Origin: an uncultured Candidatus Saccharibacteria bacterium
Lineage (GTDB): Bacteria > Patescibacteriota > UBA1384 > CAILIB01
NCBI GenBank assembly: GCA_964593885.1
Contig: CAZQKK010000002.1
Coordinates: forward strand, 84,363-148,362
Length of the DNA: 64,000 nt
Direction: 5' to 3'
The notes under the pieces are model-generated. The model worked only from the letters and a program-made list of their open reading frames with translations, ran no database searches and was not told where the DNA came from. Shown here piece after piece: positions 54,108-59,597 of the stretch. Numbering within the stretch: position 1 is the stretch's first letter; each line of letters begins with the position of its first letter. Position numbers and translations under genes: made by a program.

Positions 54108-54500
54108 CTAGGTAGGTAGCGATTTGAGAATCTCAGGGACGATTACCCTGAACAAGGTGATTGTCACCATCACGCACGGGATGATGGTCCCGAGGAGGAC
54201 AAATGCCTTAGCCTTGCCAGTGCTCAGGTGGTACCCGTGTTTCCAGGAGAAGAAGACGAATACATTGATGGCAATCTGGATGAGGCCAGCCAGGAGGTTT
54301 AGTCCTGTAAATAGGTGGATGACGTTTGCCAGGATGAAGAAGGTAAACCCCATCACTCCAGAGACAACCATCAAGAGACGCACAGTTTGCAGTTCTTTTT
54401 TCATGGTTTTCTGGAGCGAAGCAACCCTCACTCCCTCAAAATCGGGGGAATTGTACCACAAAAGTGCCAAAATGTCAATCTGGTACAATCCTGATGCCAT
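54108..54500 (-). CDS. Hypothetical membrane protein, 4 TM helices.
   Basis: Four hydrophobic helices. Confidence 0.35.
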   Translation of the reverse strand: MASGLYQIDILALLWYNSPDFEGVRVASLQKTMKKELQTVRLLMVVSGVMGFTFFILANVIHLFTGLNLLAGLIQIAINVFVFFSWKHGYHLSTGKAKAFVLLGTIIPCVMVTITLFRVIVPEILKSLPT

Positions 54501-54607
54501 GAAAAACCCAGAGTCATGCTCTGGTTAGGAAAGGGAAGGCAAGTAGTTCTATAGTTACCCGTTAACGTTCATTTGACATATCCCCTATGGGGGGATATTA
54601 TTTGAGC

Positions 54608-54874
54608 ATGCCATACACACCAAAAGACACCAAGGAACGCATTACCCACCGCTACAAAATCGTACGCGGGCACCTTAATAAGATTATTGAGATGCTTGAT
54701 AACGACGTTTACTGCATGGACATCCTGCACCAATCAAAGGCTGTACAGAAAGCTCTCCAGCAGGTAGATGCCCTCCTCTTGGAGCAACACCTGAAGACAT
54801 GTGTGCTCGATGCCGCAAAGGCAGGAAATGCTGAGGATTCACTGGCTGAGATACTAGAAATCTTTAAAAAGTAA
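54608..54874 (+). CDS. csoR: CsoR/RcnR-family metal-sensing repressor, copper-type ligands.
   Basis: RGHLNKIIEMLDNDVYCMDILHQSKAVQKAL...EQHLKTCV gives the C-H-C ligand pattern of CsoR. It is the first gene of the copper cluster. Confidence 0.75.
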   Translation: MPYTPKDTKERITHRYKIVRGHLNKIIEMLDNDVYCMDILHQSKAVQKALQQVDALLLEQHLKTCVLDAAKAGNAEDSLAEILEIFKK

Positions 54875-54884
54875 GGGAAGCACC

Positions 54885-55928
54885 ATGCCTACCATTTGGC
54901 TTGCGTTTATCACTGGCCTAACAACGGGTGGACTTTCTTGCCTCGCAGTCCAAGGTGGCTTACTTGCTAGCACCTTAGCTCAGGAAGTAGAGCAGCAAGT
55001 TTCACAGAAGAAAATTGTTTCCAGCCTCATTGTCTTTCTTACTAGTAAGCTAGCTGCGTACACGCTTCTTGGCTTTTTTCTCGGGTGGCTTGGGACGATG
55101 ATCCAAATTACGCCATACATGCGCGCCGGCCTCCAAATAGCAATTGGAGTATTCATGATTGGGATGGCACTACGGATGCTGAATATTCACCCAATATTCC
55201 GTTATTTCATCATCGAACCACCAAAATCTGTCACAAGATTCATCAGAAAGTTTGCAAAAAAGAGTGATGGTAATTTAGTGAGTGCAGGATTTCTCGGGGT
55301 CCTCACGGTACTCATTCCGTGTGGCATCACCCAGGCTGTAATGGTCACTGCTCTAGGTACTGGCAGTCCAATGCAGGGTGCGGCCATCCTCTTTGCCTTT
55401 GTACTGGGAACTAGTCCCATATTCTTTATTCTCGCGTACCTTGCAACACGATTGGGCGAAAAGCGTAATAGTCAGTTTACGAAAGTCGCCGCAGTGTTCG
55501 TACTCCTCTTGGGACTAGTCTCACTAGAAGGAGGTCTCAATCTTGCAGGCTCACCAGTCTCGTATGCTCAGTTTAAGAGCTCCATAGTTTCGTACAAGCC
55601 TGATATCAGACCACAGCAAAGTGAGAACGTTACAACAACTCCTACCGCAACACCAGCAGAAGGTAATACCGTAACAATTACTGCTGATGGCTACAACGGC
55701 TACCAGCCCACAAAAACGGTCGCCAAAGCAGGAGAACCCATCAAACTAATTATCACCAGTAAGGACCTCTATAGCTGTGCCTCAGCATTTGTTATCCCCA
55801 AATTGAAGATCCAAAGGAGCCTACCCCCAGACGGAACAACCACAATAGATATCCCTGCCCAACTTGCAGGCACCATTTCGTACAGCTGCACCATGGGCAT
55901 GTACCGAGGAAGTATTACCGTTCAATAG
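54885..55928 (+). CDS. Membrane protein with an N-terminal DsbD/CcdA/MerT-like permease region fused to a C-terminal cupredoxin-like domain.
   Basis: TM1 AFITGLTTGGLSCLAVQGGLLAS, compare CcdA AFLAGLLSFLSPCVLPLLP. C-term TITADGYNGYQPTKTVAKAGEPIKLIITSKDLYSCASAFVIPKL...GTISYSCTMGMYRGSITVQ is a cupredoxin-like beta-sandwich with Cys/Met ligand candidates. Confidence 0.5.
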   Translation: MPTIWLAFITGLTTGGLSCLAVQGGLLASTLAQEVEQQVSQKKIVSSLIVFLTSKLAAYTLLGFFLGWLGTMIQITPYMRAGLQIAIGVFMIGMALRMLNIHPIFRYFIIEPPKSVTRFIRKFAKKSDGNLVSAGFLGVLTVLIPCGITQAVMVTALGTGSPMQGAAILFAFVLGTSPIFFILAYLATRLGEKRNSQFTKVAAVFVLLLGLVSLEGGLNLAGSPVSYAQFKSSIVSYKPDIRPQQSENVTTTPTATPAEGNTVTITADGYNGYQPTKTVAKAGEPIKLIITSKDLYSCASAFVIPKLKIQRSLPPDGTTTIDIPAQLAGTISYSCTMGMYRGSITVQ

Positions 55929-56169: not shown

Positions 56170-56544
56170 ATGAAGAGCAACCAAAGCATACTGTACGGAA
56201 TCATTGGCCTACTTGCAGGCGTAATTCTAACCGGTGCCATCATGAGCTTCAGTGGCAACACAACAAGGCATGGTTCAGGAAGCATGATGGATGAGAGTAG
56301 TGATCACATGGATATGTCGATGAATGATATGGCAAAGGAACTAAAAAATAGGACAGGCGATAACTTCGACAAGGCGTTTCTTGAAATGATGATTGACCAC
56401 CACCAAGGTGCTGTTGATATGGCCAAGGAGGCACAGAAGAACGCCAAGCACCAGGAATTGAAAGCAATGTCGAACGAAATTATTTCTGCCCAGGAAAAAG
56501 AGATTGCCCAAATGAAAGCTTGGCAAAAAGAGTGGGGATACTAA
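56170..56544 (+). CDS. DUF305-family protein (copper-resistance associated), anchored by an N-terminal TM helix.
   Basis: FDKAFLEMMIDHHQGAVDMAKEA...ELKAMSNEIISAQEKEIAQMKAW, the DUF305 HH-containing helical repeat. Confidence 0.7.
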   Translation: MKSNQSILYGIIGLLAGVILTGAIMSFSGNTTRHGSGSMMDESSDHMDMSMNDMAKELKNRTGDNFDKAFLEMMIDHHQGAVDMAKEAQKNAKHQELKAMSNEIISAQEKEIAQMKAWQKEWGY

Positions 56545-58905
56545 ATGGATACTCTACTCGTAACACTTACTGGACTTGCGAGTATCGGCTTTGTCTACTG
56601 GTTTTTCTTGATGCGCAGAGATACTACAACAACTACACATACTCATGGGGAAACCATCCCACAAGAGGGTAACGTAGCAAGCCTGCAAAAAGAGGTACTA
56701 CTCCTAAACGGAATGCACTGTGCCAGCTGCGTTAGGTTGATTGAAAAGTCACTGAGTAAACTTCCTGGAGTTACCGGGGCGACCGTTAACCTTGCAACTG
56801 AAAAGGCAATGGTGAACTACGACAGTACTACATGTTCAGTGTCAGACATGAAACGCGCCGTAGAAAGCATTGGGTATGGGGTAAGAGAAGAAGCTTCAGA
56901 GGAGAAGGAACAGGCGAAACGTACCGCCGAGCTTTCTGACTTGAGAAGTAAAGTTATTATCAGTGCAATTTCTGGGGCTCTACTACTCTGGGGAACGTTT
57001 CCAGGCCTCATGGAAACTGCACCAGCTTTCTTACGCAACTTTTACATCCAACTTCTCCTAGCTACACCTGTCCAAATCTGGGCGGGCTGGGGATTCTACC
57101 GTAGTGCCTGGATATCACTGAAGCACCGTACCGCCAATATGGACACGCTCATTGGCATTGGCACGACGGTTGCTTATGTTTACTCAGCTACGTTAACGTT
57201 TTTCCCAGGTATCGTTGAAGGCACGGGTATCAGTATGATGCCGTACTTTGATGTTGGGGTGATTGTGATCGCACTCATTTTGCTCGGACAACTCTTTGAA
57301 AAACAGGCACGTAGCCGCACCTCTGACGCAATCAAGAAACTGATTGGATTACAGGCGAAAACAGCGCGTGTGGTACGAGATGGGAGAGAAATCAATTTAC
57401 CAATTGAACAGGTAGTGATTGGTGACATTATCGTTGTACGGCCTGGTGAAAAGATTCCAGTTGATGGAGTTCTCATTGAAGGCTCCTCAAGTATTGATGA
57501 GTCTATGCTCACCGGCGAAAGCCTTCCGGTGGACAAAAAAACCGGAGACGCCGTTGTCGGAGCAACACTGAATAGAACTGGAAGTTTTCAGATGCGAGCT
57601 GAGAAAATTGGTAGCGATACCATGCTCTCGCAAATCATCTCACTGGTTGAAGCAGCACAGGGATCAAAAGCGCCAATCCAGCGCCTTGCAGACACCATTT
57701 CCTCGTACTTCGTCCCAGTAGTTATCATGGTGTCAATTGCTACGTTTGTACTCTGGTTTGACCTTGGACCAAGTCCAGTACTAACTTTTGCAATTCTGAA
57801 CATGATTGCCGTGCTCATCGTTGCCTGTCCCTGTGCAATGGGCTTGGCCACCCCAACAGCAATTATGGTAGGTACCGGAAAGGGAGCAGAGCGGGGAATC
57901 CTGATAAAAAGTGCCGAGGCCCTGGAAATTGCCCACAAAGTTACCACAATCATTTTTGACAAGACGGGCACCCTCACCCATGGTAAGCCAGTGGTCACAG
58001 ATATCCACGTAGAGGATGGTTTTAGCGAAAACGACGTACTAGGCGCAGCAACATCCATTGAGAAAGGCTCTGAACACTCTCTAGCTGAGGCAATCGTAAA
58101 GTATGGTGAGGAGAAGTATGTTGAAGCTAAGAAAGTTGAACACTTTGCCGCAATTCCAGGACACGGCGTTGAGGGGACCATTGATGGGATTCAGGTACTC
58201 CTTGGTAATCGTAAGCTTATGACGAAACGTGATATCCAAGGATTTGATACTGTAGATACCATGGCTCGAGTTGAAAAACTAGAGACTAGTGGAAAGACAG
58301 TTATGTTTGTCAGTATGGGCTCAACGTACGCAGGACTCATCGCCGTGGCAGATACGGTCAAAGAGTCCGCCGCCCTTGCCGTTGAGAAGCTACAGTCCAT
58401 GGGAATTGAAACTTACATGCTTACCGGCGACAACGAGCGCACCGCTAGAGCTATCGCCTCGCAAGTGGGAATCACACACGTCCTAGCTGAAGTACTCCCT
58501 CAGGATAAAGAACGTGAGGTGCGAAAGCTCCAAGCGAAGGGGTGCACGGTGGCAATGGTGGGCGACGGTATTAACGACGCACCCGCCTTAGCAGCAGCCG
58601 ACGTTGGGATTGCGATGGGCACTGGCACTGACGTTGCGATAGAAGCTGCTGACATCACCCTAATCTCAAAGGACATGCAGGCAGTTGCTTCAGCAATTAC
58701 GCTGAGTAAAAAGACAATGAAGACAATTAAAATGAACCTCTTCTGGGCATTTGCCTACAATGTTATTCTCATACCCGTTGCAGCAGGACTACTCTACCCA
58801 TTTCTTGGCCTACTCATGAACCCAATCTACGCCTCGGCAGCCATGGCCCTAAGCTCTCTATCAGTAGTAACCAACTCACTCCTCCTGAAACGTGCTGCGA
58901 TCTAG
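56545..58905 (+). CDS. copA: Copper-translocating P1B-type ATPase.
   Basis: HMA domain [12 protein letters not shown]; TGES; CPC as [11 protein letters not shown]; DKTGTLT; [10 protein letters not shown]. Confidence 0.95.
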
Positions 58906-59597
58906 TTTGATGCCTTACCAAACACTTCCCAGGTTGTGAGGGTTGTGGCGGGCAGCTCGGGAACTTTTTTGAGTAACTCTGCTTTCGTGAGTGCGTTATC
59001 TTCGCTCAGTGAAATAGCCTGCCTGCCGTTTGAGAGCATAGGATCCTTTGGGAAGTACGTAACCCCAGCTGTATACTTTGGTGAACCGTACCTCACGTCT
59101 TGGTCTTCAACCTTTGGCCAGTAGTTTGCGATATCTCCCTCAGCACTCTTCACCCTTACTAGAGCTGTCTCAGGTATTGCTTCGAGGTGGTACGTCACCT
59201 CTCTACCAGCTTGAGAAATCACAACGGTAGGGTACAGCTTACCATCTACCACGAGCGGTTGTGAGAAGGTAAACATCTCCCTGTATGGCATGCCGCTCAC
59301 AGCACCATGCAGATCGAATCGCTTTTTTACAACCTGAACAGGAAGAAGCTCAATAGAGAGGACATCACCCCGCACGGTAACAGTTGCCTTGTCAGCATCT
59401 GGCTGTGCTGCAGGAGGGAAGTATGTAGATTCAAGGAATAGGGTGACTTCCATTGCTGCACTACCTTCACGGTAGACGTGGCGCAGGTCAAATTTTGTTC
59501 TACCCCACTGAACCACTAGCTTTGCAGGCGGCACAAAAGAAATAACGACAAGTATGCCAACAAATAATCCTGCAATAAGTACTAATTTACTGATCAT
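58902..59597 (-). CDS. Hypothetical secreted or membrane-anchored protein.
   Basis: N-terminal signal anchor [21 protein letters not shown]. Convergent with copA, overlapping it by 4 nt. Confidence 0.4.

Follow-up and report, generated by a model that had tools for sequence, protein, structure and literature searches.

The locus of copper genes described here raises a simple question: what does a bacterium gain from joining a six-helix membrane core to a copper-binding fold in one polypeptide? The gene in question (the fusion gene, Table 1) lies in a 64,000-nucleotide (nt) stretch of DNA, hereafter the window, from an uncultured Candidatus Saccharibacteria bacterium (assembly GCA_964593885.1, contig CAZQKK010000002.1, positions 84,363 to 148,362, forward strand). 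By computation we establish the architecture of the encoded fusion protein, the conservation of its ligands, its topology, the structure of its operon, and its pairing with, or fusion to, proteins of the HMA type. We tentatively propose that it is the membrane part of a two-protein Cu(I) relay. Three known modules (a DsbD-superfamily core, a CupA-type site and an HMA chaperone) are combined in an arrangement for which we found no functional description in the literature.

A membrane core fused to a CupA-type domain

The fusion protein is modular. Pfam assigns residues 7–211 to DsbD_2 (PF13386; E 8e-32, 111.2 bits against a cut-off of 24.9, model positions 2–198 of 199), residues 6–209 to DsbD_TM (PF02683; E 2e-8, 34.3 bits against a cut-off of 27.1) and residues 255–346 to Cupredoxin_1 (PF13473; E 3.9e-13), sequence matches far stronger than chance would give. 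An AlphaFold2 model built on an alignment of 114 homologues (predicted local distance difference test, pLDDT, 86.4; predicted template modelling score, pTM, 0.74) consists of six long membrane helices, two short helices within a long loop 3, and a β-sandwich at residues 262–346. Residues 240–255 of the intervening linker are disordered (pLDDT <50), and the linker varies in length and sequence across homologues. The initial annotation had placed the gene between csoR and copZ and had read from it a DsbD/CcdA-like core of about six transmembrane (TM) helices, a cysteine-bearing motif in the first of them and a C-terminal cupredoxin sandwich. All of this is borne out: the flanking genes encode a CsoR-family protein and an HMA (CopZ-like) protein, Pfam and AlphaFold2 agree on the helices and on the sandwich (the latter also by Foldseek), and the TM1 cysteine is C19. 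The fusion itself is conserved, thousands of homologues keeping both domains together.

Only one solved relative of the C-terminal domain is detectable by sequence, Streptococcus pneumoniae CupA (E 1.4e-6, ungapped over residues 266–346). CupA is also the top structural match by two methods (Foldseek E 7.6e-6, root mean square deviation 1.3 Å), and the next match is the CupA-like metal-binding domain of pneumococcal CopA. Two Cu(I) ions are bound by CupA, at site 1 (C74/C111) and site 2 (C74/M113/M115); the ungapped alignment equates these ligands with C298, C335, M337 and M339 of the fusion protein. The four residues are found in 113–114 of the 114 aligned homologues, the set used for all conservation and topology counts, and they persist in Deinococcus, Tsukamurella and Streptomyces proteins of only 35–49% identity. 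No His is among the (nearly) invariant residues of the homologues at positions 255–347, so this is not a type-1 electron-transfer site, and a classical blue-copper cupredoxin (His2-Cys-Met) is ruled out. The outer domain is instead predicted to hold a CupA-type binuclear Cu(I) site (Cys2 + Met2). Two reviews describe CupA-type chaperones as limited to a few streptococci; judged from sequence, thousands of proteins of this family have the CupA ligand set, and they carry it on the other face of the membrane from streptococcal CupA.

That side is predicted from the distribution of positive charge. Lys plus Arg residues average 6.25 in loop 1, 6.45 in loop 3 and 2.30 in loop 5, and 0.03 at the N-terminus, 1.0 in loop 2 and 0.04 in loop 4; many homologues carry long Lys/Arg-rich insertions in loop 1. 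By the positive-inside rule this puts both termini outside and makes the cupredoxin domain, by prediction, extracytoplasmic. N-out/C-out is the accepted topology of CcdA. Two terms of the initial annotation need adjusting here. Its ligand set of C..C.M names residues that are present and is incomplete, the full set being C298...C335-x-M337-x-M339; and its 'periplasmic' fits the prediction in placing the domain outside, although 'extracytoplasmic' is the better word given that most of the family is housed in phyla that we take to be monoderm or to have atypical envelopes.

Within the core, C19 lies in the TM1 motif GGLSCLAVQGG (113 of 114 homologues) and C146 in the TM4 motif IPCGxTQ (114 of 114), each near the middle of its helix in the AlphaFold2 model (residues 2–36 and 130–159). 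C19 and P145-C146 are also (nearly) invariant in Actinomycetota and Deinococcota. At similar depth lie K55 (TM2) and M91 (TM3), which the close relatives conserve. H102-P103, where cytoplasmic loop 3 begins, never varies among the 114 close homologues but does so in Actinomycetota. Pro-Cys occurs in TM4 only (I-P-C-G), TM1 reading L-S-C-L (S18-C19) between Gly-rich flanks. Placement in the DsbD/CcdA superfamily rests on the Pfam models, because the CcdA profile match is weak and no solved relative supports it: the NCBIfam DsbD model (PRK00293) scores 20.3 bits, far below its cut-off of 330, no CcdA model matched in the NCBIfam scan of the fusion protein, and hhalign against Streptomyces CcdA gives a probability of 5%, with LIPCG aligned on WTPCIG, the second catalytic Pro-Cys. 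A structure search with the TM-only model found no convincing solved relative, and hhalign detected no internal repeat between TM1–3 and TM4–6. The fusion protein has no Pfam match to the TauE, MerT or CopD families (TauE and MerT at E ≤ 0.01) and no NCBIfam match to MerT at E ≤ 0.01.

A near-obligate HMA partner

Inspection of 80 related loci reveals a recurrent companion. A gene for an HMA protein of about 70 residues (MxCxxC, no signal peptide) is the next gene downstream, in the same orientation, in 72 of them, at a median distance of 31 nt, and three of the eight exceptions end within 300 nt of the fusion gene. The pairing does not depend on a nearby copA. Of the 45 loci flanked by 5 kb on each side, 12 have no copA within 5 kb and nine of these keep the HMA gene; in another 11, copA is on the opposite strand, and the HMA gene is retained in every one. 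Every plasmid context with an intact fusion gene contains the pair, with a 4-nt overlap between its genes in Streptomyces. Three homologues (P0256, P0259 and P0263) carry an N-terminal HMA domain and one extra hydrophobic helix ahead of the core. Since the core is predicted N-out, the extra helix would leave the fused HMA domain in the cytoplasm, and genes of this type still adjoin a separate HMA gene. The same pattern, an N-terminal metal-binding domain plus soluble CopZ, is familiar from P1B ATPases. This near-obligate pairing with, and occasional fusion to, a cytoplasmic HMA protein is the strongest clue to function. Other recurrent neighbours are copA (within 5 kb in 58 of the 80 loci), csoR (28) and a DUF7482 lipoprotein (33), with SCO1 and PCuAC occasional.

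Distribution of the family

The family is large. A word-indexed search returned more than 5000 relatives, and each of the top 120 has both domains. When 1.84 billion cluster representatives (50% identity clusters) were scanned exhaustively with HMMER, 5306 passed E ≤ 1e-3 and 281 passed E ≤ 1e-30; the top 150 mostly span both domains. The fusion protein is encoded by at least 588 GTDB species representatives. The best 80 of these are mostly Anaerolineae and other Chloroflexota, together with Saccharimonadales, other Patescibacteria and Dormiibacterota, and the family extends to Actinomycetota and Deinococcota. Cultured carriers include Longilinea arvoryzae, Leptolinea sp. HRD-7 and Levilinea saccharolytica, and plasmid-borne copies occur in Deinococcus, Tsukamurella, Mycolicibacterium, Streptomyces and 'Candidatus Chlorohelix'. 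The plasmid homologues are always labelled 'sulfite exporter TauE/SafE family protein' in public records. Given the lack of a Pfam TauE (PF01925) match at E ≤ 0.01 we reject this label, which on sequence grounds appears unsupported and misleading; the records ought to be corrected. In one paper a gene of this kind stands next to CopZ, CsoR and a P-type ATPase in a neighbourhood table of the appendix, where it receives no comment.

Several variants of the architecture were seen. Among P0019, P0129, P0218 and P0253, and P0078, P0091 and P0112, some have two tandem CupA-like domains and others have multi-Cys linkers between core and cupredoxin. A divergent subfamily (P0256, P0259) has HCxxMC in TM1, ACGP in TM4, CWMGM in the cupredoxin domain and a C-terminal tail rich in Cys and Gly. 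In P0256 there are two cupredoxin domains, and at its locus (L092) a gene for an FtrD-like membrane protein lies between the P0256 gene and copA.

Probable regulation by copper

In the window the genes run csoR, fusion gene, HMA gene, DUF305/CopM-like gene and copA, separated by only 10, 7, 12 and 0 nt, the copA start codon abutting the preceding stop (TAAATG). A promoter-like site precedes csoR, and its spacer contains a perfect palindrome (ATATCCCC/GGGGATAT), a putative operator that we take to resemble the C/G-tract operators of CsoR. Since the listed csoR start (ATG 54587) falls within this palindrome, the true start is probably ATG 54609. From the operon packing, the promoter-like site and the CsoR-type palindrome, the fusion gene is very probably induced by an excess of cytoplasmic Cu(I).

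A candidate Cu(I) relay and its rivals

We read the fusion protein as the membrane part of a two-protein relay that would move Cu(I), and maybe other soft metals, by thiolate ligand exchange, a tentative reading whose chances we put a little short of even. The extracytoplasmic CupA-type domain would bind Cu(I) at its Cys2 site (C298, C335) and at the adjacent Cys/Met2 site (M337, M339), tethered by the flexible linker above a CcdA-like six-helix core. In mid-membrane, C19 (TM1) and C146 (TM4) would hold Cu(I) as a bis-thiolate rather than form a disulfide, and would expose the metal to alternate sides as CcdA does its disulfide. At the cytoplasmic face the dedicated, leaderless HMA (MxCxxC) protein would swap metal with the core by ligand exchange, and CsoR would switch on the system under copper excess together with CopA and the CopM-like protein. 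A metal-binding domain evidently serves the core on its cytoplasmic side, and a predicted Cu(I) site lies on its outer side; a relay of this kind would be the simplest mechanism.

We infer metal binding, passage via C19/C146 and exchange with the HMA partner, and likewise the direction of movement. Here we lean slightly towards the outward case, in which cytoplasmic Cu(I) would be handed outside, on account of the metal-excess regulators and the CopA-like layout of a chaperone plus fused HMA; inward, Mer-like capture is nearly as likely, on account of an outer binding domain held on a tether, like those of MerTP and CopC–CopD, and of a single merA-linked example. The role in copper uptake or hand-off that was first suggested is, as hedged, compatible with all of these findings, and does not choose between its two halves.

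Several points weigh against the relay. Conservation of H102, Q150 and M152/M153 breaks down in the actinobacterial homologues, so a complete conserved metal path is lacking. The membrane Cys pair is the exact hallmark of electron transfer by CcdA/DsbD and would equally fit a conduit for reductant, and exposed outer CupA-type cysteines would need a reductant, which such a conduit would supply. The HMA gene might be present only to serve CopA. Import within a regulon for copper excess would call for a rationale, as would passive export, and we found no functional study of any family member in the full-text literature.

The main rival is a CcdA-like reductant conduit, possible but in our judgement unlikely, in which thioredoxin in the cytoplasm would supply reducing equivalents, C19/C146 would pass them to the outer domain and no metal would cross. 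Reduced C298/C335 would then let the tethered CupA-like domain sequester the Cu(I) that CopA releases at the cell surface, or chaperone it, as a fused counterpart of Salmonella ScsB/ScsC–CueP or of DsbD–DsbC. DsbD-family proteins have a role in copper tolerance. The DsbD_TM match, above cut-off across all six helices, the invariant TM1 Cys and TM4 Pro-Cys, the hhalign alignment of the latter on CcdA and the frequency of copA nearby are all consistent with such a conduit, although TM1 lacks the Pro-Cys and the NCBIfam DsbD and hhalign scores are low. According to a review, the site-1 cysteines of CupA are oxidised when they reduce Cu(II), and what reduces them again is not known, which also favours a conduit. 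The conduit leaves unexplained why the HMA gene is nearly always present, why it stays where copA is missing or divergent, and why HMA plus an extra helix is sometimes fused to the core. Nor does a thioredoxin-fold partner recur in the 80 loci, where only SCO1/SenC, at five loci, appears among the annotated recurrent neighbour clusters (partners may be encoded elsewhere); and in actinobacterial islands bona fide, canonical CcdA and TlpA pairs coexist as separate genes beside the module.

More doubtful still is a Mer-like or CopCD-like importer, in which the outer domain would scavenge Cu(I), or Hg(II)/Ag(I), and pass it inward via C19/C146 to the HMA protein, which would then feed CopA, CsoR or, on some plasmids, MerA. 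It amounts to the relay run inwards, and is judged apart since the phenotype it predicts is the reverse. In its favour, permeases whose outer binding domains are tethered (MerTP fusions, CopC–CopD/YcnJ) are importers found in resistance operons, and the UreH-type nickel uptake proteins are secondary transporters that presumably belong to Pfam DsbD_2. In Tsukamurella the fusion–HMA pair is followed by a merA of 473 residues, probably, from its length, without an N-terminal HMA domain, and merB and merR lie near the gene of Deinococcus sp. QL22; merA linkage is, however, confined to one of about ten annotated contexts. Copper import alongside export by CopA would be futile, with no evident cytoplasmic sink, and all nearby regulators (CsoR, MerR-type, two-component system) are of a type associated with the sensing of metal excess.

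It is distinctly improbable that the protein descends from CcdA and has become bifunctional, electrons and Cu(I) alike travelling over its one pair of membrane cysteines. Reducing equivalents passed outward would let the outer CupA-type site reduce surface Cu(II), and the resulting Cu(I) would pass through the Cys pair to or from the cytoplasmic HMA protein. Such a protein would represent a copper transporter/reductase of a new class, common across Chloroflexota, Patescibacteria, Actinomycetota and Deinococcota, and the first extracytoplasmic use of the CupA binuclear site. That the core is a mere anchor or an unrelated transporter (of sulfite, for example) below an independent surface copper buffer, as the public TauE/SafE label might imply, is very improbable, given the missing Pfam TauE match, the consistently metal-related contexts, and the invariance across phyla of C19, K55, P145-C146 and many other intramembrane residues, which an anchor would not keep.

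The passage of copper across the bacterial cytoplasmic membrane outside P-type ATPases is poorly understood, especially in these phyla. The small gene pair occurs in cultured strains (Leptolinea sp., Longilinea and Levilinea included) and on plasmids (Deinococcus, Streptomyces, Tsukamurella), so its function can be tested directly.

The locus and its neighbouring genes

Table 1. Coordinates of the operon and of the parts of the fusion gene (window numbering)
Feature	Position	Strand	Details
Promoter-like site TTGACA-17 nt-TATTAT, 5' of csoR	54573..54601	+	11/12 consensus positions; consensus match only
Perfect 8+8 inverted repeat ATATCCCC-N5-GGGGATAT in promoter spacer	54578..54598		Candidate CsoR operator
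csoR, CsoR/RcnR-family copper-sensing repressor	54587..54874	+	Pfam Trns_repr_metal (PF02583) E 1.2e-21
Fusion gene	54885..55928	+	ATG start, 347 residues; AAGGGA 8-13 nt 5' of ATG (plausible ribosome-binding site)
Six-helix DsbD_2 membrane core, residues 1-222	54885..55550	+	Pfam and AlphaFold2 model
Key codons of the core	C19 54939-54941; K55 55047-55049; M91 55155-55157; H102 55188-55190; P145-C146 55317-55322		
Short amphipathic helix, then Thr/Pro/Ala-rich disordered linker, residues 223-254	55551..55646	+	
CupA-type cupredoxin domain, residues 255-347 and stop codon	55647..55928	+	
Ligand codons of the cupredoxin domain	C298 55776-55778; C335 55887-55889; M337 55893-55895; M339 55899-55901		
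HMA (CopZ-like) partner, 73 residues	55936..56157	+	Pfam HMA E 1.7e-8; MHCTAC motif, no signal peptide
DUF305/CopM-like protein	56170..56544	+	Pfam DUF305 E 6.5e-23; NCBIfam CopM 66.9 bits against cut-off 90
CopA, P1B-1 Cu(I)-exporting ATPase	56545..58905	+	One HMA domain; extra N-terminal hydrophobic helix

The top NCBIfam match of the csoR product is RicR, under its cut-off, and all NCBIfam CopZ and MerP models fall under cut-off for the HMA partner. The DUF305/CopM-like protein begins with a membrane anchor, contains a stretch rich in Met and His (MMDESSDHMDMSMNDM) and presumably binds copper outside the cytoplasm; tblastn matched it in just one of the 80 related loci. CopA has the signatures CPC (428), DKTGT (472), YN (738) and MALSS (767), the MxxSS/YN/CPC combination being that of the Cu(I) exporter type. 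Its residues 1–50 (56545-56700) place a hydrophobic helix and a Thr/His-rich stretch ahead of the HMA domain.

Two open reading frames (ORFs) without a Pfam family border the operon: a hydrophobic one of 130 residues (54108-54500, minus strand), divergent from csoR and with its own strong promoter-like site (54478-54450), and one of 231 residues (58902-59597, minus strand), convergent with copA and overlapping its stop codon. Rfam and tRNA scans of the whole window yielded a single tRNA-Ala, unrelated to the finding.

Related loci add further genes. The DUF7482 lipoprotein (about 175 residues, for example L079:4226-4750) often lies between copA and the fusion gene; it does not occur in this window. 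In two loci from Saccharimonadales metagenome-assembled genomes, ORFs of 123–125 residues (L008:6684-7061, L070:3073-3444) have one N-terminal helix and a cupredoxin domain with C...CGMHM, the L008 product matching pneumococcal CupA at a phmmer E of 5.5e-26. Each overlaps the start of a copA ORF (631–645 residues) that begins with a hydrophobic stretch and, by eye, apparently lacks an HMA domain. By sequence, cupA–copA-like pairs therefore seem to exist in Patescibacteria beside the fusion–HMA pair, contrary to a streptococcal restriction. The N-terminal helix of CopA in the window resembles by eye the anchor of these CupA-like proteins; the pump looks like the product of a fusion with an anchored chaperone. 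Immediately 5' of the fusion gene, both loci also encode a conserved secreted or anchored protein of about 305–317 residues, repeat-rich by eye (L008:4072-4989, L070:403-1356).

Comparison with known systems

CcdA and DsbD-beta (DsbD_TM PF02683, with DsbD_2 PF13386 as sister family) share with the fusion protein a six-helix core, a TM1 Cys, a TM4 Pro-Cys and both termini outside. They differ in TM1, where the fusion protein has Ser-Cys in a Gly-rich motif and CcdA has Pro-Cys (SPCC and TPCIGP in Streptomyces CcdA), and in their partners: no thioredoxin-fold substrate is encoded near the fusion protein, whose partners are the fused outer cupredoxin and the inner HMA protein. In ScsB/ScsC with CueP, and in DsbD/DsbC, a DsbD-family protein aids copper tolerance: it maintains cysteines outside the cytoplasm in the reduced state, among them the cysteines of a copper-binding protein. 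These are multi-protein relays that work via thioredoxin-fold domains, none of them fused to a cupredoxin or paired with HMA.

S. pneumoniae CupA (PDB 4F2E/2MRY) is a protein of 123 residues with one N-terminal helix that faces the cytoplasm and feeds CopA, whereas the domain described here is C-terminal to six helices, predicted outside, and about 25% identical to it. The roles are also exchanged in the pump, pneumococcal CopA having a cupredoxin metal-binding domain (4F2F) and the CopA of this window an HMA domain.

CopC–CopD and YcnJ resemble the fusion protein in combining an extracytoplasmic β-sandwich copper domain with a polytopic membrane protein, sometimes in copper-resistance operons. 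The families are unrelated, CopC binding Cu(II) via His and its N-terminal amine and CopD lacking an intramembrane Cys pair, and we know of no HMA partner for them. MerT likewise has no sequence relationship to the fusion protein, with three helices, a vicinal Cys pair and an HMA domain as outer binder. The MerT–MerP and MerTP systems nevertheless share its overall plan: an outer soft-metal binder, intramembrane cysteines and a cytoplasmic HMA acceptor, encoded together in a metal-resistance operon.

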